Positions 32,322 to 62,125 of a DNA stretch of 64,000 nucleotides are shown here, piece after piece. The notes beneath the pieces were generated by a model. The model ran no database searches and was not told where the DNA came from. It saw only the letters and a list, made by a program, of their open reading frames with translations. Within the stretch, counting starts at the first letter, position 1. Each line of letters opens with the position of its first letter. This DNA is from Nevskiales bacterium (GTDB taxonomy: Bacteria > Pseudomonadota > Gammaproteobacteria > Nevskiales > JBOICV01): positions 3,959 to 67,958 of the forward strand of contig JBOICV010000176.1 of the NCBI GenBank assembly GCA_050740255.1. The letters are read 5' to 3'. The position numbers and the translations under genes were made by a program.

Positions 32322-32326
32322 AGTGA

Positions 32327-34621: not shown

Positions 34622-34712
34622 GCGTCAGTTCGGCTCGGTCATCGGCCGCATTTTCAAGTACAGTCTGCCGACGCCCCGTGAGACGGCGGCCGCGGCTGCC
34701 TGAGGATTGGAT

Positions 34713-35099
34713 ATGCGCACCACGCTAAGCCGGCTGGAAGCCATCAAGGACCTGGTCCAGGAAGCGATAGACAAGGGCGCGACTTCGGTCGAGCAGATTC
34801 ATCGCGCCATCGCAGACTTGCCGTTTGCGGCGCTGGAGCGGGGCGGCCTGCTGCGCGAGCCTAAGCCACGCGAAGTCGTGGGTCAAAGCATCGGCGTGGT
34901 GTATGACGCGATCCGCCGCGTGAACAGCGAGGTCGGCGGGCTCGTAACCGGCTTGTTCGAATCGCTGGACGATCATGCCGACGCCCAGACCACGCTGAGC
35001 CGCAAGCAATTGAGCGAGGCGCTGGATACCGCTTTCGATAAAGAAGCCGCCACGCTTGAGCCCAAAGGAAAAAAAGCCAACAAGCGCCGCAAGTCCTGA
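34713..35099 (+). CDS. hypothetical helical protein with basic C-terminal tail
   Basis: 128 aa from ATG 34713 (GAGG Shine-Dalgarno). No family recognised. Ends KGKKANKRRKS. Embedded between desaturase module 1 and module 2. Confidence 0.55.
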   Translation: MRTTLSRLEAIKDLVQEAIDKGATSVEQIHRAIADLPFAALERGGLLREPKPREVVGQSIGVVYDAIRRVNSEVGGLVTGLFESLDDHADAQTTLSRKQLSEALDTAFDKEAATLEPKGKKANKRRKS

Positions 35100-41337: not shown

Positions 41338-42411
41338 TCAAGGTTTAAGCAGGCTGGCGTCAATATCGCTCAAACGCGTACAACCTGCCAGCGCCATGGC
41401 ATCCGACAATTCCTGACGCAGAATCTCAAGCACTCGCACCACGCCGGCTTCGCCATCCACCGCCAGCCCCCACAACACCGGGCGGCCGATCAGCACCCCG
41501 CGCGCGCCGAGCGCCAGCGCCTTGAGTACATCCGCGCCGCGCCGCACACCGCCATCCACGTAAATCTCGCAGGCTCCCTGCACCGCCGATACCACATGCG
41601 GCAGCGCCGCAACCGTGGCGGGACTGGTATCCAGCTGCCGACCGCCGTGATTCGATACCATCACCGCCTGCGCGCCATGCTCAGCGCAACGGCGTGCGTC
41701 ATCGCCGCGGCAGACGCCCTTCACCACCACCGGCAGTTTGGTGGCGGCGCACAGCCATTCCAGATGCCGCCAGGACAAGGCGCCGTCGAATAGCGTATTG
41801 ACGTAGGCCGCCAAACCAGAGCCCTCGACTTTGGGGAAGTCGCCTTTGCCCGCCGGCACCACATTCTCTACCGCTAGGCCAGGCGGCAACTGGAAGCCAT
41901 TGCGGGAGTCACGCTCGCGATTACCCCAGACCGGCGCGTCCACCGTGAGTACGATCGCCTCCGCTCCGGCGGCTTCGGCACGCGCAATTAAATCGCGCGT
42001 CACGCCGCGGTCTTTATAGATGTAAAGCTGAAACCATTTGGGGCTCGCTGCTTCGCGAAACACCTCTTCCATCGCGGTGTTGGACAGTGAGCTCAGAATG
42101 AACAAAGTACCCGCTCGCCTGGCTGCGCGCGCGGCGGCAATCTCGCCCTCCTTGCAGGCGAGTTTATGAAAAGCCGTGGGCGCAATCAGAATTGGCATTG
42201 AAACCGGACGTCCGAGCACGGTCGTTTCGAGTACGCGCGGCTCGACACCGGCCAGCACGCGGTAGTAAATCGGGATGCGCTCCCAGGCCGCGCGGTTTTC
42301 GCGCAGCGTCACTTCGTCCAGTGCGGCACCGGCGTAGTACTCGTAGACCTCTTTCGACAGACGACTGCGCGCAGCTTCCGCGTAGTCCGCGAGATTCAGC
42401 ATATTGCTCAT
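41338..42411 (-). CDS. FMN-dependent alpha-hydroxy-acid oxidase/dehydrogenase (LldD/glycolate-oxidase family)
   Basis: 357 aa. ..SNHGGRQLD.. and a GADV...IGRP C-terminal FMN-phosphate motif. ATG overlaps the upstream gene stop (ATGA). Confidence 0.88.
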   Translation of the reverse strand: MSNMLNLADYAEAARSRLSKEVYEYYAGAALDEVTLRENRAAWERIPIYYRVLAGVEPRVLETTVLGRPVSMPILIAPTAFHKLACKEGEIAAARAARRAGTLFILSSLSNTAMEEVFREAASPKWFQLYIYKDRGVTRDLIARAEAAGAEAIVLTVDAPVWGNRERDSRNGFQLPPGLAVENVVPAGKGDFPKVEGSGLAAYVNTLFDGALSWRHLEWLCAATKLPVVVKGVCRGDDARRCAEHGAQAVMVSNHGGRQLDTSPATVAALPHVVSAVQGACEIYVDGGVRRGADVLKALALGARGVLIGRPVLWGLAVDGEAGVVRVLEILRQELSDAMALAGCTRLSDIDASLLKP

Positions 42412-44735
42412 ACGACTGGTGATTCCCTAGGTAGCCGCCAGCCCTGCCAGGCCAGCGGCAGCAGAATTAGCAGGCAGGCGGCGAGCAGCATAAAGCTCTG
42501 CCAGGTGTAGCGCAGATCGCTCCAGTGCTCGAACAGGCTGAAGTACTGTCCCACACAGAGTGCGCAAAGTACGGCAATACCCCAGCCGAAAGTTCTTGCT
42601 GGTGTTTGTGCGTCGGCGAGCGCCAGTGGCAGCAGAAAAATGAAATGGCAGTAATAGTTGGAAGGATAGAACAGGAAGGGAATAGTCAGCAGGCCGATAA
42701 GCGTGACCTGATGCACCTCGCGGCCGCGGCAGGCGAAAGCCGCCAGTAACAAGACGCCCGCGATAATCGTGTAGGTGAGCGGACGGCGTGCCGCGTAGGT
42801 TTGCTGCTGCGTGCGCTGCCATTCCACCCATGGCTCGGGATGATCGCGCCGCAATACATGCTTGGCGGCGAGCGCGGGATCGTAGGACATGACGTTGCGC
42901 AGGCCAACGTTATTTATGCTGGGGCCAGTTGCGTGAATTTCTATTTTTTCGAGCCAGTTACCCCAAGCGCCTTGCCAACCGAAGAGTGCCGAGCTCGCGG
43001 CGACCAAGGCAATCACCGTCGCCACCGCGCCCAGCCCGGTGCGTATCGTCGTCGCTTGCTCCTGCCACAAGCTTTCCCAGGCCGGGCAGCGCCGTGCGCG
43101 CAATTGCTGCAGACCCCACCACAGCAGCGGCAGAGCCAGAAAGAAAGTGGCCATAGCTGGGAAGGCGCGAATCAAGCCGGCATAAGCGAGCAGGCCGCCA
43201 CCCAATACCCAGCGCCGATTCTTTAGCGCGCAGGCGCCGAGACCTAGCGCGACCAGCCAGTCCTGACGCAGGGTCGAGCCCATCAGATTGCTGCCGAAAT
43301 TATAGAAGTCAGTGACGCCAAACAGGATGGCGGAGTAAAGCATCACGCGCAGCCCGAAGCTGCGATAGACCACGAAAAACAATAGTACGATCAGAGCTGG
43401 GTCAATCAGCCCCGCAAGTGACAACGTCCACTCATTGGCCGGCAGCTCATGAAATAGCAGCCATGCGCCGAGTATCCAAACCGGCGTGGCGTTGCCGCCG
43501 TGATCTTGCATGCTGCCGAGGTAATCGGCGTCGCCCATAGCGCGCTGCAGATACAGCATGTCCTGTGTGAATTCCTGCCAGCGTGTCTGTGTAAAACGGC
43601 CGCGCACAGCCAACACTTCCGCGGCGACCTCTGGCGCGTAACGCATATCGTTGGTCTTCAAGTCGCGCAAGCGCACACCATTCATTCGATCCAAGGTCGC
43701 GCCTGGCGTGTTGTCGAGATAGGCGGCAAGACTGGCGAGGTACAAACCATCGAAACGCAGTTCCGGAAAATACTTGGCTACCGGAAAGTAGTGGCGCATG
43801 TCGAAGGTATGCACCAGAGTGCGCCGACCTTTGGCCTGATCCCGGAACTGCGGCATGCCGAAGTGGTAGTAGCAGCCCACCGCCACAACCGCGAGCGTAA
43901 TCAGCAGCGCCGTCAGCATGCGCCGATCGGACTGCTGTCCGGGTCTTGCAAAAGCTTCACGCAACGCAATCGTGCCGGCGATCAGCGCGACGGCGGCGCG
44001 CAGAGCGGATTCACCTTCGAAGAACGGATAGTGTCGGAAATAGTGGTAGGCAACCCAGAGGGTCGCGGCGAGTGCGGCCGCCAGCAGTCCCCAAGTGAAT
44101 TTGCGCGGTGCGCCACGTTGCAACAGCACGAACAACACCAGCAGTGCGGTGGCCAGCGCCAGACTCGCACGGCTGGTTTCCATTTCATTCAGAAACCAGG
44201 CGCGTTTGAACGGGGCTTTCGAGCCCTCCGCCGGACATTGCTGCGCGACGCCGAACTCGGCAACGCTGTAGCGGCCGTCGCCGCCTTGGGCGCTGAGCCG
44301 CAGGTAGCGCGCAGTGACGTTAATCGTGGCGTGCCGCAGCCGCAAGCCTGCGCCAGCCACCGCAACTGCGGTCCACAGCGGCTGAAACTGCTGACCGTCG
44401 AATGAACCGGAAACCAGATACTCGTCGTTATTGTCGCCCTGCAGCCAGATGCAGCGTAGCGCGAGCGGTACACCGAGGTCATAGTCAACATAGGCCTCCG
44501 GCGAGGCCAGGTGCGCACTGTGCTCCGATAGCCAGAAAGCGCCCTCACGCGTGCCGGTGCCGTCGGTAATGCGCCCGGCGTTGGCCACACCGAAGGCCTG
44601 TGGCGGTAGCTCCGCGAGCAAGTTATTCGGACTGGGGGCAGCTTGCGCGCAAACGCTTGCAAGCAGCAGCGATATGGTGACGATGACTAGCTGTACAGGC
44701 CTGGGAATCACGTGTTCGTCTAGAATGGAACGCAA
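42408..44735 (-). CDS. large polytopic membrane protein with N-terminal periplasmic discoidin (F5/8 type C)-like domain; function unknown
   Basis: 775 aa. Signal peptide; a ~130-aa segment (ITDG...WLS...YVDYDLG...YLRLSAQGGDGRYSVAEFGV) that looks like a discoidin jelly-roll; then more than 12 predicted TM helices. Confidence 0.6.
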   Translation of the reverse strand: MRSILDEHVIPRPVQLVIVTISLLLASVCAQAAPSPNNLLAELPPQAFGVANAGRITDGTGTREGAFWLSEHSAHLASPEAYVDYDLGVPLALRCIWLQGDNNDEYLVSGSFDGQQFQPLWTAVAVAGAGLRLRHATINVTARYLRLSAQGGDGRYSVAEFGVAQQCPAEGSKAPFKRAWFLNEMETSRASLALATALLVLFVLLQRGAPRKFTWGLLAAALAATLWVAYHYFRHYPFFEGESALRAAVALIAGTIALREAFARPGQQSDRRMLTALLITLAVVAVGCYYHFGMPQFRDQAKGRRTLVHTFDMRHYFPVAKYFPELRFDGLYLASLAAYLDNTPGATLDRMNGVRLRDLKTNDMRYAPEVAAEVLAVRGRFTQTRWQEFTQDMLYLQRAMGDADYLGSMQDHGGNATPVWILGAWLLFHELPANEWTLSLAGLIDPALIVLLFFVVYRSFGLRVMLYSAILFGVTDFYNFGSNLMGSTLRQDWLVALGLGACALKNRRWVLGGGLLAYAGLIRAFPAMATFFLALPLLWWGLQQLRARRCPAWESLWQEQATTIRTGLGAVATVIALVAASSALFGWQGAWGNWLEKIEIHATGPSINNVGLRNVMSYDPALAAKHVLRRDHPEPWVEWQRTQQQTYAARRPLTYTIIAGVLLLAAFACRGREVHQVTLIGLLTIPFLFYPSNYYCHFIFLLPLALADAQTPARTFGWGIAVLCALCVGQYFSLFEHWSDLRYTWQSFMLLAACLLILLPLAWQGWRLPRESPVV

Positions 44736-44796: not shown

Positions 44797-46350
44797 ATGG
44801 CTTCAACACAAAAACTCCATTTCCGGCTGCATTACCTCTTGGCGGGACTCGCGCTGGTTGTCGCGGCCGTGCTGTGGGCACAGACACCTCTGACGCTGGA
44901 CGATGCCTTCATCTCTTACCGGTATGCGCGAAACCTGGTTCAAGGTCAGGGCCTGGTCTTCAACAGCGGCGAGTTGGTCGAAGGCTACACCAATTTTCTA
45001 TGGGTACTGATCGCCGCGTTGGCGATTGCATGTAAAGCCGATCCGTTCGCGGCGACGCGGCTGTTGGGAGTGCTCTCCTACGGAATTGGAGTTCTGTTCT
45101 GCGCGCAAGCCTTGTACGCGACGGCACCACAGCGCATTTCCAGCCTGCTGCTCGTGGCATTTTTGGGTATGTTGCTGCTGCCCGATGGCTTGCTGGCCGC
45201 CGTCGGCACCGGCCTAGAAACCGCTTTCGTCGGCACGCTGGGCATTCTGCTCGGCTTAAGCCTGTTTGTTTGGTCTGAACGAATCCGCGCCGCATATCTC
45301 ATAGCCGCAGGCACAGCGCTAATCCTGCTCTTGACGCGGCTCGACGCCGTATTGCCAGTGGCCGCAGCGGGCTTGGTGTTCTGGCTTAGTCGCCTGCCAA
45401 ATGGCGTGCGCTCTGCAACTTGGCACACCGCCGTACAGTTCGCCATTCCGGCGCTGGGGCTGATTATCTATTTGCTCTGGAAAATCAGCTATTACGGCGA
45501 ACTGCTGCCCAATACCTACTACGCCAAGGGCGGCGATCTCTGGTCCTGGGAGCAAGGAAAGGCTTATCTGCGGTCGTTCCTGTCCAGTAATCCTCAAGTT
45601 GCAGCCGCTCTGCCGCTGGCGTTTCTGGCTGCTTTTGCCGCTGACGCGCCCACATGGCGCAGATTCGCTCAATATGCGTTGCTGACCGTCCTGCTGCGTT
45701 GCGCTTACGTTGGGAAAGTCGGCGGGGATTTCATGCAGTATCGCTTCATCTGGGAAACTTATCCGCTGCTTATTTGCGCTGCCGCGATCGGGCTGGGCAA
45801 GCTGGCGAGCCTAACAGAACCGCTGTGGGCCTTTGCTCTGGTATTAGTCTGCCTGGTATTGAGTGCGCAGCCCGCGACCCTGGACAATAAGTTCGGACAA
45901 CAGTGGCCGGACGAGATGGATCGCTATGCACGCGAAGGCCAGCAGGTTGGCAAAGCGCTGTACGCGGTTCTGCCAGAAAACACGGTCATTGCTACCACGC
46001 TGGTAGGCACCTTGGGTTACTACACTAACCTCAAAATCGTTGATCAGTGGGGACTCACTGACAGGTTTATAGCCCACATGCCCGTTTCTCGTATCGTGAC
46101 GCGCGGCCATGTCAAATTCGCGCCACAGGAATATCTACGTTCGCGCGGTGTCAATCTGTATATTGCTCACCCGCAACTGTGTTCCTGCAGTCAACCATGT
46201 ACCGAGGCCTTGCCCAATGTATTCATACGAGTGGAACGCGACTTGTGTGTGCGCAGCTGGTACTTCGGGCAGACGGACGATTTGACGCGTCATTTCTGCA
46301 GCCACCCCCAAAACTTCGTCCTGCATAACATCATCTGCCCGAGCTCCTGA
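44797..46350 (+). CDS. polytopic membrane protein, GT-C-fold glycosyltransferase-like (DD motif after TM1)
   Basis: 517 aa. TLDDAFISYRYARNLVQGQGLVFNSGELVEGYTNFLW after the first helix recalls the DDx loop motif of GT-C enzymes (e.g. Emb-type arabinosyltransferases). About 11 further hydrophobic helices. Confidence 0.5.
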   Translation: MASTQKLHFRLHYLLAGLALVVAAVLWAQTPLTLDDAFISYRYARNLVQGQGLVFNSGELVEGYTNFLWVLIAALAIACKADPFAATRLLGVLSYGIGVLFCAQALYATAPQRISSLLLVAFLGMLLLPDGLLAAVGTGLETAFVGTLGILLGLSLFVWSERIRAAYLIAAGTALILLLTRLDAVLPVAAAGLVFWLSRLPNGVRSATWHTAVQFAIPALGLIIYLLWKISYYGELLPNTYYAKGGDLWSWEQGKAYLRSFLSSNPQVAAALPLAFLAAFAADAPTWRRFAQYALLTVLLRCAYVGKVGGDFMQYRFIWETYPLLICAAAIGLGKLASLTEPLWAFALVLVCLVLSAQPATLDNKFGQQWPDEMDRYAREGQQVGKALYAVLPENTVIATTLVGTLGYYTNLKIVDQWGLTDRFIAHMPVSRIVTRGHVKFAPQEYLRSRGVNLYIAHPQLCSCSQPCTEALPNVFIRVERDLCVRSWYFGQTDDLTRHFCSHPQNFVLHNIICPSS

Positions 46351-49011: not shown

Positions 49012-49082
49012 GCAAGCTCTCCTGAAAGACGTCCGGCGCGCAGTATAGCCTCGGCATGAAAACTTCATGCCAGGGGGCTAGA

Positions 49083-50912
49083 ATGACCAGCAAACCCAAG
49101 GAAATTCATATGGCCGGTGATGAGGCAGGACAGAACAGCAGGCCGTTCGGTGGGCTGGCGATATTGGCCGGAATCCTGTTCGTGACGGGTGCTGTGGCCG
49201 CAGGTTTGTGGGCCTATCGCGATCAGGTGACGCCGGGCGGCACTCTTGAGGAAACGCTGGCCGTGCTGGAAGATCCCAGCGCCCAGCCCAAGCGCCGCAA
49301 ACCAAAACGTGAAACGGTGGCTGAGGAAACCGCGGCCGGGGAGCTTGGCGCGGACGCACAAGTTGCGGCCGGCGCAGAACCACCACCCGCGGCCGTACCG
49401 GCCAGCACTGGGCTTTATCCGCCGGAAGCCACGGCGGAAGCCGCCGCGCACCTGTGCTTCTTCTCGTTCAACAACCCGGTCGAATACCAGCAGTTCAAGC
49501 GCTTCATCGCCTCCATACAGCCGAATACGCCGATCAAACTCAGCGTGGCCGAGTACATCGCCAACGACGCCGATGTCGAGGACGCTTTCCTCGCGGTGCT
49601 GAACTCCGGCGTGAAATGCGACGGCGTGGTGCTGTCCGGTCACCATACCGACGAGTTTTACGGCGATCGCAGCTCCGGCGACATGGACTTCGATTTCCTC
49701 GAGGAGCAGGCCTGCAATCCGCGCCACGCGGCGTGGTTTTCACATGTGAAGGCGCTGTGGCTGCAGGGTTGCAATACCGTCAAGACCAAGATGCTCAATG
49801 ACGAGGTGGATTCGGACGAGCGCATTCACGGCTCGCCCTTGCCGATGATGACCGGCCTGATCCGCGTCAACGATCTCGAGGACGGGCTGGAAGACGCGCG
49901 TGACCTGCTGGAGGAGAATCTCAACGACGAGAATCTGGTCAACGACTATATGCGGATTTTTCCCACCGCCACGGTGTTCGGCTGGAGTTTCATGGCGCCC
50001 GGCGAGAAAGCCGGCTCGCATTACTCGATGCCTTATCACGTGGCGCAGGTGTCGCATGTGCTGAATCCCGCGGAGGAGTTTTTCGCCAATCCAATGAAGA
50101 GCGAGATTCCGGCGGCGTCCGCGCAGCATTACGCCGCGGCGCTATACGGCATGCTGACGCGCCCGGCCACTGCGGGCGCCGATCCGATTCCCGGCATGAA
50201 CGAGGACAGTTTCATCCTCGGCTGGCGGCGGCACGGCGATTTCCGTTTCAAATGGGCGCTGGACAATCCAGACCTGCGCGGCTATCACTCGCTGTTGAAC
50301 GCGGATAACGAGATCAATCGGCAGCTCAAGGGACTGAATTGCCTGCTGCAGGCGATCGACGACAAGCGAGTCAATGGCGAAAGCGTCGCGTCCGTCGCCG
50401 ATTACGCGCTCGCTCAGGAATCGCTGATACCTTTCACCAGTTACACGCTCGCCGCGCTGGCGCGGAACTCCGGCGGCAGCTTGCGCGCGCGGATGCAGGA
50501 CAACGCCACGCTAATGGGCTATCTGCAACGCGCTGCCGCGGCTGAGGGTTATCGCGGCAACGACGCCAGGAGCCTGCTGGCTTATCTGCGACCGGCGGAT
50601 GCGGATCAGGCGGTGGGCAGTGCTGCAGTATCGGAAGATGTAAGCACTGCAGCCAACGCGCCGGCCGAAGTTCCGGCGCAGCCTGCGTCGGCGGATGAAG
50701 CCGAGCCTCCGCCGGTTGATGATGCAAGCGTACCAGCGGCAGAGTCGGCTTCTGAGCCTGAGCAGGCCGCGCCGGCGCCGGTGGTAAGGCCGCCTGCCGC
50801 AAACGAGGTGAGAGCACCGCCGCGCGAGGCTACCCGCTCTGCCAAGCGCAAGCGCGTAACGCTCGCGCCGGTGCTCGGCAGCGAGGACGCCGTCTCCTAC
50901 GACGAAGATTGA
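49083..50912 (+). CDS. membrane-anchored hypothetical protein with caspase-like His/Cys arrangement and Ala/Pro/Glu-rich tail
   Basis: One TM helix (GGLAILAGILFVTGAVAAGLWAY). HLCFFSFNN strand; VVLSGHH then, 43 residues on, LWLQGCN. Start uncertain (49056, 49083 or 49110). Confidence 0.6.
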   Translation: MTSKPKEIHMAGDEAGQNSRPFGGLAILAGILFVTGAVAAGLWAYRDQVTPGGTLEETLAVLEDPSAQPKRRKPKRETVAEETAAGELGADAQVAAGAEPPPAAVPASTGLYPPEATAEAAAHLCFFSFNNPVEYQQFKRFIASIQPNTPIKLSVAEYIANDADVEDAFLAVLNSGVKCDGVVLSGHHTDEFYGDRSSGDMDFDFLEEQACNPRHAAWFSHVKALWLQGCNTVKTKMLNDEVDSDERIHGSPLPMMTGLIRVNDLEDGLEDARDLLEENLNDENLVNDYMRIFPTATVFGWSFMAPGEKAGSHYSMPYHVAQVSHVLNPAEEFFANPMKSEIPAASAQHYAAALYGMLTRPATAGADPIPGMNEDSFILGWRRHGDFRFKWALDNPDLRGYHSLLNADNEINRQLKGLNCLLQAIDDKRVNGESVASVADYALAQESLIPFTSYTLAALARNSGGSLRARMQDNATLMGYLQRAAAAEGYRGNDARSLLAYLRPADADQAVGSAAVSEDVSTAANAPAEVPAQPASADEAEPPPVDDASVPAAESASEPEQAAPAPVVRPPAANEVRAPPREATRSAKRKRVTLAPVLGSEDAVSYDED

Positions 50913-51561: not shown

Positions 51562-52884
51562 ATGCAACCGGAACGAAGGAGGGCCATTCTGGCGCTGGCG
51601 CTGCCGACCATCGGCGGCATGATGTCGCAGAACGTCCTGAACCTGATTGATACCGCGATGGTCGGCGCGCTTGGACCGGCCGCGCTGGCCGGTGTGGGTT
51701 TCGCCAGCTTCCTGAACTTCTTTGCGTTTGCCGCCATTGCCGGTCTGGCCAATGCGGTGCAGGCCATCGCCGCGCGCCGTTATGGCGAAGGCAGGTTCGA
51801 AGAAACCGCCTTGCCGCTCAACGGCGGTCTGCTGCTGGCCTTGGTCATCGGCGCGCCCTTGTCGGCGCTGCTGATTCTGACCGCGCCCTGGTACTTCCCG
51901 CTGCTCATCAATGATCCGGAAGTGGTGCGCGAAGGCTTGCCCTATCTCCAGTTGCGCCTGCTCGGCATCACCGCCATCGGCATGAACTTCGCCTTCCGCG
52001 GCTATTGGAACGCGGTCAATCAGGCGCGGGTATATATGCAGACGCTGCTGATGATGTGCGCGCTGAACATCGTGCTGAACTATCTGCTGATCTTCGGCAA
52101 GCTCGGCCTGCCGGCGCTCGGCACCACCGGCGCCGGTTTTGGCACCATGATCTCGGCCTGGCTGGGCACGGCCTATTACTTCTACCTGGCGCACCGGAAA
52201 ATCCGCTCGGGCGGATTCCTGCACCGCTGGCCCGACCGCGTGCAGATTCGCGCCTTGCTGAAACTGGGCCTGCCATCCTCCACCCAGCAGTTGTTTTTCG
52301 CCGGCGGCTTCGCGGTGATGTTCTGGATCATCGGCCAGGTCGGCACGCCGGAGCTGGCGGTCGCCAACGTGCTGGTGAACATCACCCTGGTGGCGATACT
52401 GCCCGCGCTGGGTTTTGGGCTGGCGGCGTCGTCGCTGGTCAGTCATGCGCTGGGCCGTGGCGATGCGGCGGACGCGCATCGCTGGGCCTGGGACGTGGTG
52501 AAAATCGGCGCCTTCGTGTTTATTGCACTCGGACTGCCAATGATGTTCTTCCCCAAACTCGTGCTGTCTGCATTCCTGCACGAAGCTGAATTGCTGGAGC
52601 TGGGCGAGCTGCCGCTGCAACTGGCGGGCTTCGGCATCGCGCTGGATGGCGTCGGCCTGATTCTGATGCACGCACTGCTGGGCGCCGGCGCCAGCGCCTC
52701 GGTGATGGCGGTGGCCATCATTCTGCAATGGGGTTTGTTCCTGCCCTTCGCCTGGTGGCTGGGGCCGCATCTGGGTTTTGGCCTGACCGTGATCTGGCTC
52801 GCGTTTATCGGCTACCGCGCGATTCAATCCACGCTGTTCACCCTGTTATGGGAGCGGCGCGCCTGGATGGCTATTCGGATATAA
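51562..52884 (+). CDS. MATE-family efflux transporter
   Basis: 440 aa, 12 TM. ILALALPTIGGMMSQNVLNLIDTAMVG N-terminal MATE signature. Confidence 0.9.
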   Translation: MQPERRRAILALALPTIGGMMSQNVLNLIDTAMVGALGPAALAGVGFASFLNFFAFAAIAGLANAVQAIAARRYGEGRFEETALPLNGGLLLALVIGAPLSALLILTAPWYFPLLINDPEVVREGLPYLQLRLLGITAIGMNFAFRGYWNAVNQARVYMQTLLMMCALNIVLNYLLIFGKLGLPALGTTGAGFGTMISAWLGTAYYFYLAHRKIRSGGFLHRWPDRVQIRALLKLGLPSSTQQLFFAGGFAVMFWIIGQVGTPELAVANVLVNITLVAILPALGFGLAASSLVSHALGRGDAADAHRWAWDVVKIGAFVFIALGLPMMFFPKLVLSAFLHEAELLELGELPLQLAGFGIALDGVGLILMHALLGAGASASVMAVAIILQWGLFLPFAWWLGPHLGFGLTVIWLAFIGYRAIQSTLFTLLWERRAWMAIRI

Positions 52885-52911
52885 AAAAGCCGACTTGCGT
52901 CGGCTTTTTTT
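52885..52911. terminator. bidirectional rho-independent terminator
   Basis: AAAAAGCCGAC-TTGC-GTCGGCTTTTTTT lies between the convergent MATE and desaturase genes. Confidence 0.85.
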
Positions 52912-52925
52912 GAAGATACTGCGAT

Positions 52926-54104
52926 TCACGCAGCCCGTTGCAGTTCAACGTCTTGCAGCAAACGGGTGGAAACGCTCTGCGCCAGCTTTTCGCGTGCGCG
53001 CACCACCGCCGTATCCAGCGCCGGCACGTCGGCGAACTTGCGCTTGGCGCCGGTCTTCAACTCCTCCAGCGACGGCAGGCTCGGCAGCTCGATGGACTTC
53101 AGATAAGCCTCGGCCTCCGCCACCGCGCGTTGCGCACGCAGTTTCAATTCTTCCCAGTGGTGGCTGTTGTGCCAGGCGGTCTTGACCTGTTCGACCAGCG
53201 TGTCCACCGAGAAACCCGCGGCGATATGGCCGGCGGTGCGGTCAATGATGGCGTTGGTCGGGCGCTTCTCGCTCTTGAGCACGCTCTCCGGCGGGGTCTG
53301 CACATCCCATACCAGGCCGCACTTCTCCAGCAGTTTGATCAGGTAATAAGTCACGTCATATTCGTACCAGAAAAAACCATTTCGGGCCGAACCGGGATAG
53401 TAGTGATGGTTGTTGTGCCAGCCTTCGCCCATCGCGATGATGGCCAGCAGCCAGTTATTGCGCGAGTCGTCGCCGGTCAGATAACGCTGCTTGCCGAACA
53501 CATGCGCCAGCGAGTTGATCATGAAGGTGGCGTGATACACCAGCACCGTGGACAGCACGAAGCCCACGAACAGCCCCGACCAGCCGCCGATCAGGAAGCA
53601 CACCACGCCCAGCAGAATGCCCGGCAGATACTTGTTCCTGTCGAGCCAGCGCAGTTCCGGATATTTAGCGAAATCCTGGATCAAGGACATATCCGCGTTC
53701 ATGCGCTGACGGAAGACCCAGCCCATGTGCGCGCCCCAGAAACCGTAATGGCGCGGCGAATGGGCGTCAGCGGGGGTGTCGGAATCGCGGTGATGCTCGC
53801 GGTGCTTGGCGGCCCACCACAGCGGACCGCGTTGCATGGCCATGGCGCCGCAGAGCACGATCAGAAACTGGGTAACGCGCCCCGCCTTGTAGGAGCGGTG
53901 CGAGAGCAGGCGGTGATAGCCGCCGGTGATGCCGAATACGCGCACCACATACAACACGGCGCACATCACCACGGCCTGGGTGGTGAAGCCGGTCCAGAAC
54001 ACGCCCAGCGCTGCGACGTGAAACAGGATGAAGGCGAACACGCTGGGACGAATGCTGTCGTCGTCCACCGCGGGCGCCGCCTGGGCCGATACCGTTGCCT
54101 GCAT
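52926..54104 (-). CDS. desA: Delta9-type (SCD/DesA-like) membrane fatty-acid desaturase, paralog 1
   Basis: His boxes HRLLSHRS, HREHHRDSD and GEGWHNNHH. A ~110-aa helical C-terminal extension. ATG 54104 behind GAGGAG. Confidence 0.85.
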   Translation of the reverse strand: MQATVSAQAAPAVDDDSIRPSVFAFILFHVAALGVFWTGFTTQAVVMCAVLYVVRVFGITGGYHRLLSHRSYKAGRVTQFLIVLCGAMAMQRGPLWWAAKHREHHRDSDTPADAHSPRHYGFWGAHMGWVFRQRMNADMSLIQDFAKYPELRWLDRNKYLPGILLGVVCFLIGGWSGLFVGFVLSTVLVYHATFMINSLAHVFGKQRYLTGDDSRNNWLLAIIAMGEGWHNNHHYYPGSARNGFFWYEYDVTYYLIKLLEKCGLVWDVQTPPESVLKSEKRPTNAIIDRTAGHIAAGFSVDTLVEQVKTAWHNSHHWEELKLRAQRAVAEAEAYLKSIELPSLPSLEELKTGAKRKFADVPALDTAVVRAREKLAQSVSTRLLQDVELQRAA

Positions 54105-54134
54105 TGACCTAAACTCCTCTACCGGAAGCCGCAT

Positions 54135-54172
54135 TATACACCTATATATACATTTGTCTATACACGTGTATA
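54135..54172. promoter_or_regulatory. overlapping ACA-N2-TGT-core boxes including a perfect 14-bp palindrome (putative FabR operator)
   Basis: TATACACCTATATATA (54135..54150), TATACATTTGTCTATA (54147..54162) and the perfect TATACACGTGTATA (54159..54172), all in the desA/fabR divergent promoter. Confidence 0.6.
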
Positions 54173-54212
54173 ATACGGCTGTAATAAAGCTGTATCTCGG
54201 ATAAGGATATTG

Positions 54213-54866
54213 ATGAAACCGGCTGATCTAGCCACTAGCGCAACTTCCGCCCGCAAGACCCATATCGGGCGGGAAGATTTGATTGCGGCTGCGCTGAAAC
54301 TGCTGGGCCCGCATCGCAGCGTCTCGACGCTGAGCCTGCGCGAGGTGGCACGCGCGGCCGGCATCGCCCCGAACAGCTTTTACCGGCACTTCCGCGATGT
54401 GGACGAGTTGGCGGTCGCGCTGATTGACCAGGCCGGCGCCAGCCTGCGCAAAGTCATCCGCGAGGCGCGCCTGCGCATTTCCAAGGGCGAAGGCAGCGTG
54501 ATCCGGCCTTCGGTCGAAGCCTTCATGGACCAGTTAGAGGCGGACAAAAAACTGCTGCACATCCTGATGCGTGAAGGCACGGTCGGCTCCAACGCCTTCA
54601 AGCAGGCGGTGGAGCACGAGCTGCGGCACTTTGAAGAAGAGCTGCGCGTGGACCTCATCCGCCTCTCGGCCGCCAACGGCGACCCGATTTACCGCCCGGA
54701 GCTGGTCGCACGCGCCATCACCCGCCTGACCTTCGCCGTGGGCGGCGCCGCCATGGACTTGCCGGCCGAGCAGCGCGCCCTCATCAAGGAAGACATCGTC
54801 GAGATGGTCAAAATGATCATGGCCGGCACGCAGACGCTCGCCGCCACCGAAGGTGCGCAGGCCTAG
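54213..54866 (+). CDS. fabR: TetR-family repressor FabR-like
   Basis: LSLREVARAAGIAPNSFYRHFRDVDELAVALIDQAGASLRKVIREARLRISKGEGSVIRPSVEAFM is near-collinear with E. coli FabR as I recall it. Confidence 0.82.
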   Translation: MKPADLATSATSARKTHIGREDLIAAALKLLGPHRSVSTLSLREVARAAGIAPNSFYRHFRDVDELAVALIDQAGASLRKVIREARLRISKGEGSVIRPSVEAFMDQLEADKKLLHILMREGTVGSNAFKQAVEHELRHFEEELRVDLIRLSAANGDPIYRPELVARAITRLTFAVGGAAMDLPAEQRALIKEDIVEMVKMIMAGTQTLAATEGAQA

Positions 54867-54874
54867 TTTCTGCC

Positions 54875-55013
54875 GTCATTCCCGCGCACGCGGGAATCTT
54901 ACATCGTCCCCAGAAGATACCCGCTTTCGCGGGTATGACGGAACGATCGGATACCGCCCTATCGGGCCCTCGTCATTCCCGCGCACGCGGGAATCTTGGG
55001 CCGGAATGACGGC
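54875..55013. repeat. REP-like cluster
   Basis: GTCATTCCCGCGCACGCGGGAATC occurs twice (54875..54898 and 54972..54995). ATACCCGC-TTTC-GCGGGTAT hairpin between them. CCGGAATGACGG half-unit at the end. Confidence 0.8.
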
Positions 55014-55016
55014 CTA

Positions 55017-55220
55017 TCAGGAGCCGCGCTTTCTCCGCTCCGTCACCTGCTCCCCCGCAATGCCCCAGTTGTCGGTGCTTACTTCGTCAATCACTACAAC
55101 GGTGGTGGCAGGATTCTTGTTGAGCACTTTCTGAAGCAGAGAGGTGACGCCGGCTATCAGCTCGGCCTTCTGCTCTTTAGTGGCGCCTTCATTGGTGATC
55201 TTGATATTTACGTAGGGCAT
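55017..55220 (-). CDS. 4-oxalocrotonate tautomerase family protein
   Basis: 67 aa starting MPYVNIKI (catalytic Pro1), beta-alpha-beta layout. Confidence 0.85.
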   Translation of the reverse strand: MPYVNIKITNEGATKEQKAELIAGVTSLLQKVLNKNPATTVVVIDEVSTDNWGIAGEQVTERRKRGS

Positions 55221-55260
55221 GTTTTTATCGCCTCACCGCTGCGGTTGGTCCGCATCTCGG

Positions 55261-55446
55261 CTAGAAGGGAGGGACCCCAAGATCCTTGCAGATTTTCCGA
55301 GCCAAATGATCATGAACTTCGGTGTGACGCGGAACTGCGCTCCTACGATTGAGGTTCGGGTTGTGCCACCAGGAGCGCCGACCGCCCTCGCGGAGGAGAG
55401 AGCAGCCGTGTTGCGAAAGATGCCGCAGCAGGTCGCGGCGCTTCAT
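55261..55446 (-). CDS. hicA: HicA-type mRNA interferase toxin
   Basis: 61 aa. MKRRDLLRHLSQHGCSLLREGGRRSWWHNP...VPRHTEVHDHLARKICKDLGV. Confidence 0.88.
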   Translation of the reverse strand: MKRRDLLRHLSQHGCSLLREGGRRSWWHNPNLNRRSAVPRHTEVHDHLARKICKDLGVPPF

Positions 55447-55655
55447 ACCGCGATGGGGAGTTCTTCATAGCCTTTACCCGCCGCACGGCGAGCATCTTTA
55501 CGGTTCATTTCGAGGGCCTCAGCCAACGTGACCCGGAGCGTTTCAACGAGTTCCTCGCGCGTTGACTCTTGACAGTTGACGCCCGGTACTTCCTCGATCC
55601 AGCCGATCCACCAAGGGGCCTTGTGTTTAATGACAGCGGTATAGGTCTGCTTCAT
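55443..55655 (-). CDS. hicB: HicB-type antitoxin
   Basis: MKQTYTAVIKHKAPWWIGWIEEVPGVNCQESTREELVETL.. 4-nt overlap with hicA. Start is ATG 55655 (alternatives 55664 or 55703). Confidence 0.8.
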   Translation of the reverse strand: MKQTYTAVIKHKAPWWIGWIEEVPGVNCQESTREELVETLRVTLAEALEMNRKDARRAAGKGYEELPIAV

Positions 55656-55776
55656 GACCGCCATTCTACCTTGACGACCGCCTATCCCATTATTGGGATC
55701 CAAGCAAAGTAGACGTCAAGATGACGTCCAACGTCGGACACTTATCCGATTAATCCGGTACTTCAAACACGGTAGC

Positions 55777-55814
55777 TCATAACAAAAAACCGGCTTTCGC
55801 CGGTTTTTTGTTAT
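55777..55814. terminator. bidirectional rho-independent terminator (17-bp perfect stem)
   Basis: CATAACAAAAAACCGGC-TTTC-GCCGGTTTTTTGTTATG, just downstream of the desA paralog 2 stop. Confidence 0.85.
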
Positions 55815-55825
55815 GAACATTTACC

Positions 55826-57004
55826 TTAAGCGGGCAGCTGCGCTTTCGCGTGCTCCATCAGCTTGAGCGACACCGCCTGCACCAGGCGGGCGCGGGCGCG
55901 TTCGACGGCTTCGTCGAGCGACGGCGTATTCGCGAACATCTTGCGCGCCTTCGCGCGCACTTCATCCGGGCTCGGCAGGGCGGGCAGTTCGATGGAGTGC
56001 AGATAGGTTTCTGCTTCGGCCATCGCCTGTTGCGCGCGCGCTTTGAGTTCTTCCCAATGATTGCTGTTAGCCCAGGCTTGACGTACCTGCGCCACCAGCC
56101 CGTCTACCGAGAAACCGGAAGCGATATGGCCGGCGGTCTTGTCAATGATGGCGTTGGTAGTGCGCTTCTCGCCGCTCAGCACACTCTGCGGCGGACGCTG
56201 TACTTCCCAGACGACGCCAAGTTTCTCGAACAAGCAGATCAGGTAGTAAGTCGGGTCCCACTCGTACCAGAAGAAGCCGTTGCGCGCCGAGCCGGGGTAG
56301 TAGTGGTGGTTGTTATGCCAGCCTTCACCGCCGGCGATAAAAGCCAGAAACCAGTGGTTACGCGAATCATCGCCGGTGAGATAGCGCTGTTTGCCGAGCA
56401 CGTGCGCCAGCGAGTTGATGGCGAAAGTGGAGTGGTATACGAGGATGGTCGAAAGCGTGAAGCCGGCGAACAAGCCCGGCAGGCCGTCCAGCGCAAAACA
56501 GAACAAGGCCATGAGCAGGCCGGGCGCGTACTGGTTTTCCTGCAGCCAGCGAATCTCGGGGTATTTGACGAAGTCCTGAATCAGATTCATGTCCGCCTGC
56601 AGCCGGCGCGGGCGGAAAATCCAAGTCACATGGGCGCCGAGAAAACCATAGTGGCGCGGCGAGTGGCCATCGGAGGGGGTGTCCGAATCGCGATGGTGGG
56701 CGCGGTGCTTGGCGGCCCACCACAGCACGTCGCGCTGCATGGCGGCCGTACCCCAGAAAGCCAGAAAGAACTGGAACACGCGTCCGGTCTTGAACGAGCG
56801 GTGCGAGAAGTAGCGGTGATAGCCCATGGTGATGCCGAACACGCGCAGCCAGTAGAGCGCGATGCACAGAATCACGGAAGTGGTGGTGAAGCCGGTCCAG
56901 ATTACGGCGAGCGCCGCGAGGTGAAACAGGATGAAAGGAAAGGCCGTCGGATAAAGAATATCGTCCGACAATGCCTTTTCAGCGGTGATCGTATGCGCCT
57001 GCAC
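55826..57004 (-). CDS. Delta9-type (SCD/DesA-like) membrane fatty-acid desaturase, paralog 2
   Basis: HRYFSHRS, HRAHHRDSD, GEGWHNNHH. By eye about 65-70% identical to paralog 1, including the C-terminal extension. Confidence 0.85.
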   Translation of the reverse strand: MQAHTITAEKALSDDILYPTAFPFILFHLAALAVIWTGFTTTSVILCIALYWLRVFGITMGYHRYFSHRSFKTGRVFQFFLAFWGTAAMQRDVLWWAAKHRAHHRDSDTPSDGHSPRHYGFLGAHVTWIFRPRRLQADMNLIQDFVKYPEIRWLQENQYAPGLLMALFCFALDGLPGLFAGFTLSTILVYHSTFAINSLAHVLGKQRYLTGDDSRNHWFLAFIAGGEGWHNNHHYYPGSARNGFFWYEWDPTYYLICLFEKLGVVWEVQRPPQSVLSGEKRTTNAIIDKTAGHIASGFSVDGLVAQVRQAWANSNHWEELKARAQQAMAEAETYLHSIELPALPSPDEVRAKARKMFANTPSLDEAVERARARLVQAVSLKLMEHAKAQLPA

Positions 57005-57286
57005 GTATTTCCCCCGATTTATCGCAGCACTACAATGGTCCGGTTACTTAGTCGCCGGCCGGCTTCAAAGGCAGGCTCGGATTCCTGACCATTACAACAA
57101 GACGACATTGTACTTTTTTTACACGGCCACGCCATTAAAGACTTAGGTCACCGGTAGCGGCTCAGTTTGCCGTCACACCGGCCCTTCGACTGTGCTCAGG
57201 ATAAACTCCGGCTGGTGTCTATGGTATTGAATAGACTGGATTCAGGCCTGCGCCGGAATGACGAGCACAAAGAGTAAGGGGGATTT

Positions 57287-59455
57287 ATGAGCTCACATAA
57301 CGTTCGGCTGGTGGACGACGTCGAGCGGGCCACCGACGCCATTATCGAAAAGCTGGGCAAAACCATCGTGTTAGGCATGCCGCTGGGTTTGGGCAAGCCG
57401 GCCGAGCTGGCCAACGCGCTATTCGCTCGCGCCGCTAAGGACTCTTCGCTCAAGCTCAAGATTCTGACGGCCTTGTCGCTGGAGGTGCCCACGCCCGCCA
57501 ATGGGCTGGAAGCGGCCTTTATGGGCCCTTTTTTGGAACGCGTATTCGGCGGCGTTCCCCAGCTCGATTACATCAACGCGCTGCGCAAGGGCAAGCTGCC
57601 GCCGAACGTGGAAGTCTGCGAGTTCTTCTTCAAGCCAGGCAGCTTCATGACCAACCTGCACGCGCAGCAGCACTACATCAGCAGCAATTACTCGCACGCG
57701 GCGCGCGACGTGTTCAATAACGGCTGCAATCTCACCGCCCAAATCATCTGCAAGCGCGAGACGCCGCAAGGCCCGCGTTACTCGCTGTCCTGCAACCCGG
57801 ATACCGCGCCGGAGCTGCTGGAACTGCTCAAGGCCAGCGGCCGGCCGCACCTCGCGGTCGGTCTGGTGAATCAGAGCCTGCCCTATATGTACAACGACGC
57901 GGAGGTCGGGCCGGAAGACTTCGACCTGATTATTGATCATCCGCGCTACACCACGCCGCTGTTCTCGACACCCAAGATGCCGGTGATGACGCCGGACTAC
58001 ATGATCGGCCTCAATGCCAGCGCGCTGATCAAGGACGGCGGCACCCTGCAGATCGGCATCGGCGCACTCGGCGATGCCATCGTCTATGCGGCCAAGCTGC
58101 GGCATGAGCACAACGAGGTTTATCAGCAGACGCTGCGCGCGGCCGGCGTCCTGACGCAGTCGGAAAAACTTGTTGGCGACATCGGCGGTACCGAGCCCTT
58201 TCAGCAGGGTTTATACGGCGCGACCGAGATGTTCGTGGACGGTTTGCTGCACCTGTACAAGGCCGGCATTCTCAAGCGCCGCGTCTACGACTTCTGGGCG
58301 CTGCAACAGCTCGTCAACGAAGGCCGCTGCGATCCCGACCAGCTCAAGCCCGAGGTGCTCGATGGGCTGGAGTCCCTCGGCGTACGCACGATCCGCACCC
58401 GCGATTTCGCGGTGCTGCAGCACCACGGCTTATTCAATGACCAGACGCGCTATGACCTGGGTTATATCGTCGCGCCGGACGGCGAGCGCGTGATCGGCAA
58501 TGTGGCCGAGCCGCATTCGCGCCAGGTGATCGGCGATCGCTGTCTCGGCAAAAAGCTGCGCCACGGCATCGTGCTGCACGGCGGCTTCTTCCTGGGTCCG
58601 CGCGATTTCTACGACGGTCTGCGCAACATGAGCGAGGACCAACGCCGCCAGATTTGCATGACTGGCGTGTACAAGGTCAACCAGCTCGACCACAACCCGC
58701 GGCTTTACAAGCAACAGCGGCTGCACGCGCGTTTCATCAACACCGGCATCATGGTGACGCTCTCGGGGGCGGTGTGCTCGGACGGTCTGGAGGACGGCCG
58801 CGTGGTGTCCGGCGTCGGCGGACAGTACAACTTCGTCGCGATGGCGCATCAACTGCCGACCGGCCGCTCGATCCTGATGATCCGCGCGGTGCGCGACAAG
58901 GAAGGCAAGACGACAGAGCCGTCCAGCAATATCGTGTTCAACTACGGCCACACCACGATTGCGCGCCATCTGCGCGACATCGTGATCACCGAATATGGCA
59001 TCGCCGAGCTGCGCTCGAAAACCGACAGCGAAGTGATCAAGGCTTTGCTCAACGTGGCCGATTCGCGCTTTCAGCAAGGTTTGCTGGAACGGGCGAAGAA
59101 AGCCGGCAAGCTCGAAGTTGATTACCAGATACCGGAGCAATACCGTCAGAACCTGCCGGAAAAACTCGAAGAGAAGCTGGCTGAGTGCAAGAAACAAGGA
59201 TTGTTTCCCGCGTTCCCGCTCGGCTGCGATCTGACCGAAGACGAACTCAAGCTCGGCAAGGCACTCAAGGGCGTGAAAGCGCGCGCAGCGGCCGGCAAGC
59301 TGCGCGCGATGCTGGATGCGTGGAAGGTGAAGGAAATTCCAGCCAGCGCAAAACCCTATCTGGAGCGCATGCAACTGACGCAGCCGCAAACGCTGCAGGA
59401 TAAGATCGTACAAAAGCTGCTCGTGCTGGAACTGCAGACGACCGGAGCGATTTGA
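57287..59455 (+). CDS. acetyl-CoA hydrolase/transferase family protein
   Basis: 722 aa. ..VSGVGGQYNFVAMAH.. and overall layout of long acetyl-CoA hydrolase/transferase C-terminal-domain proteins. Confidence 0.75.
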   Translation: MSSHNVRLVDDVERATDAIIEKLGKTIVLGMPLGLGKPAELANALFARAAKDSSLKLKILTALSLEVPTPANGLEAAFMGPFLERVFGGVPQLDYINALRKGKLPPNVEVCEFFFKPGSFMTNLHAQQHYISSNYSHAARDVFNNGCNLTAQIICKRETPQGPRYSLSCNPDTAPELLELLKASGRPHLAVGLVNQSLPYMYNDAEVGPEDFDLIIDHPRYTTPLFSTPKMPVMTPDYMIGLNASALIKDGGTLQIGIGALGDAIVYAAKLRHEHNEVYQQTLRAAGVLTQSEKLVGDIGGTEPFQQGLYGATEMFVDGLLHLYKAGILKRRVYDFWALQQLVNEGRCDPDQLKPEVLDGLESLGVRTIRTRDFAVLQHHGLFNDQTRYDLGYIVAPDGERVIGNVAEPHSRQVIGDRCLGKKLRHGIVLHGGFFLGPRDFYDGLRNMSEDQRRQICMTGVYKVNQLDHNPRLYKQQRLHARFINTGIMVTLSGAVCSDGLEDGRVVSGVGGQYNFVAMAHQLPTGRSILMIRAVRDKEGKTTEPSSNIVFNYGHTTIARHLRDIVITEYGIAELRSKTDSEVIKALLNVADSRFQQGLLERAKKAGKLEVDYQIPEQYRQNLPEKLEEKLAECKKQGLFPAFPLGCDLTEDELKLGKALKGVKARAAAGKLRAMLDAWKVKEIPASAKPYLERMQLTQPQTLQDKIVQKLLVLELQTTGAI

Positions 59456-62042: not shown

Positions 62043-62125
62043 TTTGTGCTCGTCATTCCGGCGCAGGCCGGAATCCAGTCTTTTCAATCCCATGGACACC
62101 GGCCTGCGCCGGTGTGACGGCGAAC
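62043..62125. repeat. REP-like units of the GTCATTCCGGCGCAGGCCGGAATC family
   Basis: CGTCATTCCGGCGCAGGCCGGAATCCAG and a degenerate inverted partner CCGGCCTGCGCCGGTGTGACGG. A related unit lies at 57236..57268. Confidence 0.75.

Follow-up and report, generated by a model that had tools for sequence, protein, structure and literature searches.

How do two similar membrane desaturase genes come to lie 1.7 kb apart, only one of them beside a TetR-family repressor gene, and are they subject to the same control? The question is raised by a 64,000-nt stretch of DNA (the window) from a metagenome-assembled genome (MAG) of a Nevskiales bacterium (Gammaproteobacteria), in which the desaturase gene des1 is transcribed divergently from fabR and its paralog des2 occupies a neighbouring position. 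The answer argued for here is that des1 and fabR would form a divergon subject to feedback by FabR, that des2, set in an older gene backbone, would be expressed independently of FabR, and that the two desaturases represent sister clades of an old duplication. On the sequences compared, we consider this overall reading probable.

Related loci are designated by L-numbers, L001 being the closest relative of the window and L086 the Abyssibacter locus. The des1 orthologs, which are linked to fabR, constitute clade F, the des2 orthologs clade A2, and a set of more distant desaturases (P0046, P0055 and P0063) is referred to as AX.

Regulatory asymmetry at the two desaturase genes

The features that bear on control of the two genes are the following:

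52926 to 54104, minus strand: des1, encoding a 392-aa SCD1/Ole1-like membrane desaturase of the FabR-linked clade F (Pfam FA_desaturase)
55826 to 57004, minus strand: des2, with a GTG start, encoding a 392-aa SCD1/Ole1-like membrane desaturase of clade A2 (Pfam FA_desaturase)
54213 to 54866, plus strand: fabR, encoding a TetR-family repressor; ATG at 54213 is the preferred start, the open reading frame (ORF) list giving TTG at 54210
54114 to 54118, minus strand: ribosome-binding site of des1, AGGAG, 9 nt upstream of the ATG at 54104
54135 to 54172: three predicted FabR-type operators in a 12-bp register, O3 (54135-54148), O2 (54147-54160) and O1 (54159-54172)
54133 to 54160, minus strand: predicted sigma-70 promoter of des1, TAGACA, 16 nt, TATAAT (11/12 matches)
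54147 to 54174, plus strand: predicted sigma-70 promoter of fabR, TATACA, 16 nt, TATAAT (10/12 matches)
52886 to 52912: bidirectional intrinsic terminator common to a MATE efflux gene (plus strand) and des1 (minus strand), AAAGCCGAC-TTGC-GTCGGCTTTTTTT
55781 to 55812: bidirectional intrinsic terminator after des2, AACAAAAAACCGGC-TTTC-GCCGGTTTTTTGTT
57005 to 57286: intergenic region between des2 and a coenzyme A (CoA)-transferase gene, without FabR or DesT box

The regulator gene, described as FabR-like in a preliminary description of this DNA, encodes a protein that passes the NCBIfam FabR equivalog model (NF008402; 179.3 bits, cut-off 151) and contains the Pfam domains TetR_N (PF00440) and TetR_C_46 (PF21943); its best match in the PDB is DesT (3lsj, E 3.5e-19). 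Orthologs that are 60-75% identical to it stand divergently from des1 orthologs in L001, L002, L086 and L088. The fabR-des1 spacer in the window spans 105 bp and holds three tandem TATACAnnTGTATA boxes, of which O1 is a perfect palindrome, TATACACGTGTATA, with O2 and O3 as degenerate copies. These are three matches, all inside 38 bp, against 0.32 expected in the 64-kb window, and their core, TACACGTGT, is identical to that of the E. coli FabR site given by Luo et al. (2014, PMC4273635). The predicted promoter of des1, a putative gene of unsaturated fatty-acid synthesis, thereby bears operators of the TACACGTGTA type.

Both predicted promoters of the spacer are embedded in this array. The -35 element of des1 lies within O2 and its -10 element overlaps O3; the -35 element of fabR likewise lies within O2 and its -10 element overlaps O1, an arrangement that implies autoregulation. 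This back-to-back pair comprises the only sigma-70-like promoters detected by a consensus scan for promoters and terminators over 4.6 kb (52800-57400). The des1 start at 54104 is taken to be correct because of its AGGAG sequence, the alternative ATG at 54134 being located inside the predicted -10 box. The triple array, with TGTATAAT at each end, recurs upstream of the des1 orthologs of L001, L002 and L088, and the Abyssibacter spacer (L086), at 56 bp, has one box; strong boxes are present in all five des1-type spacers, and the TGTATAAT motif of the des1 promoter is conserved throughout the five. Sequence-level support for FabR repressing des1 and its own gene is strong.

The region upstream of des2 is differently constituted. 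It has no FabR box within 3 mismatches, and neither does the rest of the window outside the fabR-des1 spacer; it also has no DesT-type box, the window's boxes of that type being confined to 32262-32279 and 32304-32321, and no sigma-54 or other motif was recognised in it by eye. FabR and DesT boxes are likewise absent from the equivalent regions of des2-type and AX genes in five relatives. The regulatory asymmetry between des1, with FabR boxes, and des2, with none, is well supported at this level of analysis, and the regulatory divergence that the preliminary description had drawn from a palindrome beside paralog 1 only is upheld to that extent: FabR boxes adjoin paralog-1 orthologs in five genomes and paralog-2 types in none of six. 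What des2 has in common with its relatives is of another kind. The window and L001 both have a block (57098-57124 in the window) within which a -10-like element, TACAAT, is read at 57107-57112 on the minus strand; a second block, CCATTGTAGTG at 57028-57038, is also common to the two; and TACAAT/TATAAT-like elements are found at comparable positions in L083, L090 and L091.

Each desaturase gene ends, as previously proposed, in a bidirectional terminator of its own. Both terminators are GC hairpins between A and T runs that fold on either strand, at -16.1 (plus) and -17.5 (minus) kcal/mol behind des1 and at -27.5/-32.2 kcal/mol behind des2, and equivalents follow both genes in L001. The consensus scan missed them since their A/T tracts are taken up in the hairpin itself; direct folding brought them out. 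The strength of the terminator behind it makes des2 monocistronic.

The mechanism proposed on this basis runs by analogy with E. coli FabR, Pseudomonas aeruginosa DesT and the Shewanella oneidensis fabR-desA pair. FabR would occupy the operator array when unsaturated acyl-CoA or acyl-acyl carrier protein (acyl-ACP) is plentiful, and bound FabR would shut off des1 and its own gene, which would place the aerobic synthesis of unsaturated fatty acids under feedback. That binding of FabR would be promoted by unsaturated acyl-thioesters is taken over from E. coli FabR and DesT. Expression of des2 would be independent of FabR, from a promoter layout common to des2 orthologs, as its lack of a FabR or DesT box and its location in a different backbone suggest. 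The fabR-des1 module occupies unrelated loci elsewhere and, here and in the closest relative, the interval between a tautomerase gene of that backbone and the MATE efflux gene. The sequences, homologies, operators, promoter-like sites, synteny and phylogeny are observed directly; from these we infer that FabR represses and responds to ligand, and that the enzymes have delta-9 specificity and use acyl-CoA.

Two desaturases of the stearoyl-CoA desaturase type

The two minus-strand ORFs encode proteins that are 66% identical (79% positives) over their full length of 392 aa, in keeping with an earlier estimate of 65-70% made by eye. Both exceed the cut-off of Pfam FA_desaturase (PF00487; 29.7 bits), with 69 bits for des1 and 58 bits for des2. 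The des1 product is 100% identical to MGH8530998.1 and the des2 product identical to MGH8531003.1, both annotated 'acyl-CoA desaturase' in the same Nevskiales MAG; the database names that attach to these proteins ('acyl-CoA desaturase', 'stearoyl-CoA desaturase (delta-9)') are homology-based annotation. Their histidine boxes read HRLLSH / HREHH / HNNHH in des1 and HRYFSH / HRAHH / HNNHH in des2. Nine histidines and one asparagine (H64, H69, H101, H104, H105, N197, H201, H230, H233 and H234), which correspond to the di-iron ligands of SCD1, are invariant in an alignment of 94 homologs. Residues 21-273 of des1 match mouse SCD1 (4ymk) with E 5.6e-34 (phmmer) and are homologous to the human enzyme as well, and an AlphaFold2 model, with a mean predicted local distance difference test score (pLDDT) of 88 and a predicted template-modelling score (pTM) of 0.85, matches the SCD1 structures 4zyo, 4ymk and 6wf2 at TM(target) 0.70-0.74 and E 4e-11 (Foldseek). 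Delta-9 specificity and an acyl-CoA substrate would be expected of such proteins by homology.

These comparisons bear on what the enzymes should be called. Against the NCBIfam equivalog NF049918 ('DesA family fatty acid desaturase'), which we take to represent DesA of the P. aeruginosa type, des1 scores 106.6 and des2 104.6 bits, far below the cut-off of 400, and the profile alignments, over positions 8-287 and 10-344 of 385, denote distant homology. The two are of the stearoyl-CoA-desaturase (SCD1/Ole1) type rather than members of the curated NCBIfam DesA family. The label 'DesA-type' given to them in the preliminary description therefore fails for that family and is acceptable in the Shewanella sense, in which DesA is Ole1-like. 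An annotation trap is corrected thereby, in that the one name DesA covers two families, that of Pseudomonas and the Ole1-like one of Shewanella.

Outside the SCD1-homologous core (residues 21-273), both proteins have the helical C-terminal extension that had been noticed at the outset: about 115 aa (approximately residues 275-392), for which AlphaFold2 predicts six helices with block pLDDT values of 87-97. No Pfam, PDB or fold match to the extension was found (Pfam searches; Foldseek matched the SCD1 core only). It is not particular to des1 and des2: among the matches listed, full-length homologs reach to residues 380-390 in Salinisphaera, Gemmatimonadota, Acidobacteriota, Bradyrhizobium and Nitrospirillum, and homologs consisting of core plus extension are widespread. 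When the extension alone (window 52929-53282) was compared with a library of 1.8 billion proteins (phmmer), 53 weak matches were obtained, mostly of 70-250 aa with few full-length desaturases among them; the short ones align over nearly their whole length and may represent either partial genes on short contigs or the domain in stand-alone form.

The proteins end in -RAA (des1; 52929-52940) and -LPA (des2; 55829-55840). An SsrA-like -LAA or -AA end is found in 9 of the 16 FabR-linked orthologs, and most of the 142 family members are Ala-terminal. By analogy with the C-terminal degron of Mycobacterium tuberculosis DesA3, the helical C-terminal domain could serve regulated proteolysis or the docking of a partner, the paralogs then differing in post-translational turnover; we consider this quite doubtful. 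If it were true, membrane unsaturation would be under two-layer control, des1 being subject both to FabR repression and to decay driven by a degron, and des2 to neither of them. We know of no description of such two-layer control for Gram-negative SCD-type desaturases.

Relative to the L001 orthologs, the ratio of nonsynonymous to synonymous substitution rates (dN/dS; all values by the NG86 method) is 0.15 for des1 and 0.10 for des2. The alignment and dN/dS comparison of the paralogs with each other, already proposed in the preliminary description, gives a dN of 0.27, a saturated dS of 1.08 and an omega of 0.25; because dS is saturated, the duplication cannot be dated by it. Judged by these ratios, both copies are under purifying selection, functional and long maintained. 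Recent gene conversion between des1 and des2 was considered and rejected, since no stretch of identity exceeds 26 nt, only 54% of third positions agree, and des2 stands no nearer to the des1 beside it than to the one in L001.

Origin of the pair and competing readings

The history of the two genes has to be read against a conserved backbone, comprising a CoA-transferase-like gene (ach), a desaturase gene, a tautomerase gene, an optional toxin-antitoxin pair or small ORF, and matE. Apart from des2, its members in the window are:

57287 to 59455, plus strand: ach, encoding a 722-aa protein of the class I CoA-transferase / acetyl-CoA hydrolase family (Pfam AcetylCoA_hyd_C)
55017 to 55220, minus strand: gene for a 67-aa protein of the 4-oxalocrotonate tautomerase family (Pfam Tautomerase, TIGR00013)
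51562 to 52884, plus strand: MATE efflux gene, matE (TIGR00797, 246 bits), at the other edge of the backbone

Clade A2 has only six members in two database searches, and those with a readable flank (the window, L001 and L083-85) always stand divergently from an ach of 722-730 aa. In L089, L090 and L091/92 the backbone slot next to ach is occupied by AX. The whole window backbone is common to L090 and L091, and L094 has ach, a desaturase and MatE. Tautomerase homologs lie directly downstream of the backbone desaturase in L091 (79% identical) and L090 (65%); since the backbone is common to these two loci, the tautomerase gene that now separates the paralogs is ancestral. MATE homologs at the same position are 86% identical in L001 and 65% identical in L090, L091 and L094.

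Clade F genes are distributed differently: they are always beside fabR, in four unrelated flanking contexts. The des1 and des2 units are adjacent, in the same orientation, only in the window and L001, where the fabR-des1 module is located between the backbone tautomerase slot and MatE. The other three contexts (L002, L086 and L088) have fabR-des1 without des2 nearby, L083 has a paralog-2 type without the module, and one contig carries F and AX genes 46 kb apart. Neither a FabR nor an ach homolog adjoins any of 80 outgroup desaturase loci, taken from among the matches listed in a profile search of genome contigs with the paralog alignment; these loci come mostly from distant phyla, the closest Nevskiales genomes not being among them. 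Linkage to FabR being specific to F in this comparison, it is most simply regarded as derived in that clade.

In a bootstrapped neighbour-joining (NJ) tree (54 sequences, 390 columns, 200 replicates), F and A2 group together in all 200 replicates and A2 and AX in none; F itself is recovered in 187 and AX in 173. Six shared-derived sites unite F with A2 and none unites A2 with AX, and these sites are spread along the protein, with no mosaic. Clade F includes distant genomes such as Abyssibacter, and A2 falls outside all of F; des1 and des2 are closest relatives at the level of clades, not a recent within-genome pair. The des1/des2 split is old, to judge from the saturated dS (~1.1) and from the separate conservation of each clade in relatives; local duplication is not demonstrated. 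The preliminary description had spoken of an old local duplication, and its first adjective stands. It had also pointed out that orthologs located singly at separate loci in relatives would make the adjacency coincidental, and the loci with F alone or with A2 without F go part of the way toward that outcome. The comparison of synteny that it had suggested bears out the separate conservation of the clades and shows adjacency, outside the window, in L001 only.

How des2 came to occupy its slot is the least certain step. Relative to L091, the window's desaturase (61%) is the most diverged backbone gene (ach 67%, matE 65%, tautomerase 79%); relative to L001, des2 (84%) is more conserved than ach (80%; matE 86%). 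These figures lead us to favour displacement or conversion of a resident AX-type gene by des2 over a simple on-the-spot tandem duplication, in a judgement that could fall to either side.

The best-surviving alternative, which we regard as unlikely, is precisely such a duplication: the backbone desaturase would have duplicated in tandem on the spot, one copy would have recruited FabR, and the module would later have been relocated or transferred horizontally to other Nevskiales. The unanimous sister relation of the two clades and their adjacency in the same orientation in the window and L001 speak for it; a tree of the form (AX,(A2,F)) is what one would expect if the gene had duplicated in the A2 lineage after speciation, and the four unrelated contexts of fabR-des1 fit mobility. 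It is harder to reconcile with the monophyly of F (187/200), Abyssibacter included, to the exclusion of A2, with the contig on which F and AX lie 46 kb apart, and with the presence of A2 without the module in L083, and no remnant of a duplication junction was seen. The identity between A2 and AX (54-62%) is moreover below that of the flanking ach (64-67%), implying that A2 and AX are not simple orthologs, although this argument is qualified by the L001 and L083 comparisons, in which the desaturase is the better conserved gene.

Somewhat less likely again is that the paralogs diverged in enzymatic function (chain length, double-bond position, or an acyl-CoA as opposed to a lipid-bound substrate) and not only in regulation. 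Six F-clade-specific substitutions bunch directly after histidine box 1, at des1 residues 65-83 (window ~53856-53912), where clade F has HRLLSH..AGRVTQFLIVL and the family consensus is HRYFSH..TSRVFQF.LAF. The cluster hints at enzymatic divergence and marks a candidate region for altered substrate handling. The seven A2-specific changes are dispersed (for example N216H, beside the DDSRN motif). That both copies have long been kept under purifying selection also suits a division of enzymatic labour, whereas the identity of all catalytic ligands and of most of the core does not; in any case, a change of this kind would be compatible with regulatory divergence rather than exclusive of it.

It is improbable that both paralogs are under FabR control, des2 by way of a degenerate or distal operator or indirectly, and that there is no real regulatory divergence. 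FabR regulons elsewhere do hold several unlinked genes (fabA, fabB and desA; PMC4273635), and a weak box-like sequence, TATTCAATACCATA, is located ~230 nt upstream of des2. That sequence has 4 mismatches, outside the limit of 3 within which the fabR-des1 spacer contains all of the window's sites, and it is not conserved in L001, L089, L090 or L091, in contrast to the strong boxes of every des1-type spacer. It is scarcely credible that either gene is a superfluous or degenerating duplicate without a role of its own, as five desaturases in 26 kb might suggest: neither ORF is truncated or lacks any of the His and Asn ligands, both evolve at a dN/dS of 0.10-0.15 relative to their orthologs, and each has a ribosome-binding site and a terminator and belongs to a clade conserved in several genomes.

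Several considerations weigh against the reading that we prefer, in which a FabR-controlled des1 and a FabR-independent des2 descend from an old duplication. The phylogeny is by NJ only, and the placement of A2 as sister to F could reflect an acceleration of rate after duplication; the (AX,(A2,F)) tree would likewise be obtained if the genes had duplicated in tandem and the fabR-des1 module had then spread; and the co-occurrence of F, A2 and AX within one genome is based on a few contigs. With regard to control, the scan of 52800-57400 yielded no full sigma-70 consensus match upstream of des2, and FabR may act on des2 indirectly, or through a site that is distal or escaped recognition. With regard to function, the survey of ORFs and Pfam domains found no cytochrome b5 domain in des1 or des2 and no reductase gene adjoining either one, so the electron donor must be encoded elsewhere.

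Neighbouring genes, related systems and significance

Two additions to the backbone lie between fabR and des2:

55261 to 55703, minus strand: putative toxin-antitoxin pair consisting of hicA (55261-55446) and a hicB-like gene (55443-55703), the ORFs overlapping by 4 nt
54875 to 55011: cluster of repetitive extragenic palindrome (REP)-like units, GTCATTCCCGCGCACGCGGGAATC twice and one inverted variant, directly after fabR

The hicA product scores 37.4 bits with Pfam HicA_toxin (cut-off 27); the 86-aa upstream ORF, a putative HicB, has no Pfam or NCBIfam match. The related loci searched, among them L001, L090 and L091, yielded no homolog of hicAB, and the matching spacer of L001 lacks the REP-like cluster; both insertions are peculiar to this lineage. 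Further REP-like units are found in intergenic spacers at 62052-62075 and, as had been observed upstream of paralog 2, at 57239-57263, where the unit is degenerate. A ParE/antitoxin pair in L091 and a small ORF of no recognised family in L090 both lie between tautomerase and MatE, a position unlike that of hicAB in the window; from such insertions, the region downstream of the backbone desaturase is seen to collect small cassettes. In L091 the tautomerase gene starts 8 bp behind the backbone desaturase gene (L091 9203-9211; compare L090 9209-9296), which makes co-transcription of the two probable; des2 and the tautomerase gene of the window are now separated by a terminator and hicAB. L001 has lost the tautomerase, and des2 and fabR are there tail to tail, 63 bp apart.

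On the other side of des2, the 4-hydroxybutyrate CoA-transferases 3eh7 and 3gk7 match both halves of the ach product, in which an HNE motif takes the place of HTE in 3eh7. Pfam recognises the C-terminal domain only, and the N-terminal 430 aa have no family match. Homologs that match it in full length at 45-70% identity occur in numerous metagenomes from sea and soil, and this widespread long-form family seems not to have been characterised. Divergent orientation of ach and a desaturase gene is found in 7 Nevskiales-type loci and in only one (L094) of the 80 broader metagenome loci surveyed (L093-L172); close ach homologs (63-70%) in L093, L097 and L098 have no desaturase in the 7 kb to either side that was covered, and those upstream ORFs of L093 and L098 that were inspected are unrelated. 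A functional coupling of des2 and ach through acyl-CoA supply was entertained and downgraded, the family being widespread and a desaturase adjoining it in so few of these loci; the adjacency is best read as lineage-specific synteny.

The window contains a second desaturase locus, with these regulatory features:

31481 to 32212: DesT-like regulator gene of the upstream array
32262 to 32279: DesT-type palindrome, AGTGAACACGTGTTGACT
32304 to 32321: DesT-type palindrome, AGTGCACACTTGTTCACT; both palindromes are in the interval 32213-32326, between the DesT-like regulator gene and the first reductase-desaturase pair

Three DesB-like desaturases, 47-62% identical to one another, are encoded there downstream of two FNR-type reductase genes and the DesT-like regulator gene; BLAST detects no similarity between them and des1 or des2. 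The count of five membrane desaturases and two FabR/DesT-type regulators in 26 kb that had been given for this region is exact: the window has five FA_desaturase genes and two regulators of the FabR/DesT family, all at 31481-57004. The lipid- or hydrocarbon-oriented lifestyle that the preliminary description read from this dosage would be speculation; lipid-rich environmental Gammaproteobacteria commonly have several desaturase paralogs. The ORFs at 42408-44735 (775 aa), 44797-46350 (517 aa) and 49056-50912 (618 aa) have no Pfam match, and the 130-aa ORF at 34707-35099, between the first and second reductase-desaturase sets, has no NCBIfam match. The DesT-type boxes have a ACACGTGT core in common with the FabR box, their flanks being different. 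The arrangement as a whole suggests two parallel acyl-CoA-sensing circuits that would not cross-react.

The closest known counterpart of the fabR-des1 divergon is the desA (SO0197)-fabR (SO0198) divergon of S. oneidensis, in which an Ole1-like desaturase gene stands divergently from fabR, the desA promoter carries a FabR-like box, and FabR represses desA in unsaturated fatty-acid homeostasis; S. oneidensis DesA is Ole1-like (E 3e-64) and weakly similar to P. aeruginosa DesA (2e-11) (PMC4273635). The layout of des1-fabR is the same and its box has the same TACA..TGTA core, a likeness that is drawn from the published description and not from an alignment with SO0197. The window differs in its three tandem boxes over both divergent promoters and in having a second, putatively FabR-independent paralog 1.7 kb away. 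The comparison with E. coli FabR likewise has two sides: the window's regulator passes the FabR equivalog model and the operator core is identical, but the flanks of the box differ, with TATACA/TGTATA half-sites as against the fabA/fabB operator AGCGTACACGTGTTCGCT (as quoted in PMC4273635), and the target is a desaturase gene, not fabA or fabB.

DesT of P. aeruginosa (3LSJ/3LSP/3LSR) is the best solved-structure match of both TetR regulators of the window, at 73 bits for the des1-linked and 127 bits for the upstream one. The DesT-desCB system resembles des1-fabR in its TetR repressor, with acyl-CoA-sensing logic, divergent from a desaturase gene, and resembles the upstream array in its succession of a DesT-like gene and boxes, then reductase and desaturase; des1 and des2, by contrast, have no adjoining DesC-type reductase. 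The two enzymes have the core (21-273), the fold, the histidine-box pattern and the Asn/His ligands of SCD1 (4YMK, 4ZYO, 6WF2) and Ole1, and differ from these in lacking a cytochrome b5 domain and in possessing the extra ~115-aa helical C-terminal domain. Mycobacterium tuberculosis DesA3 (Rv3229c) is also a bacterial SCD-type membrane desaturase, one that uses a dedicated adjacent oxidoreductase (Rv3230c), whereas none adjoins des1 or des2.

A FabR/DesT-type repressor beside a desaturase is already established, and the locus extends this known biology to Nevskiales without changing it. Distinctive here are the triple operator over two promoters, the putatively FabR-independent sister paralog next door and the probable displacement of a paralog in the backbone. 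The triple operator over two back-to-back promoters constitutes a well-defined, testable design for a lipid-sensing TetR repressor, and the locus as a whole would be a clean natural example of duplicated membrane desaturases under different control, one of them inside an autoregulated FabR module.

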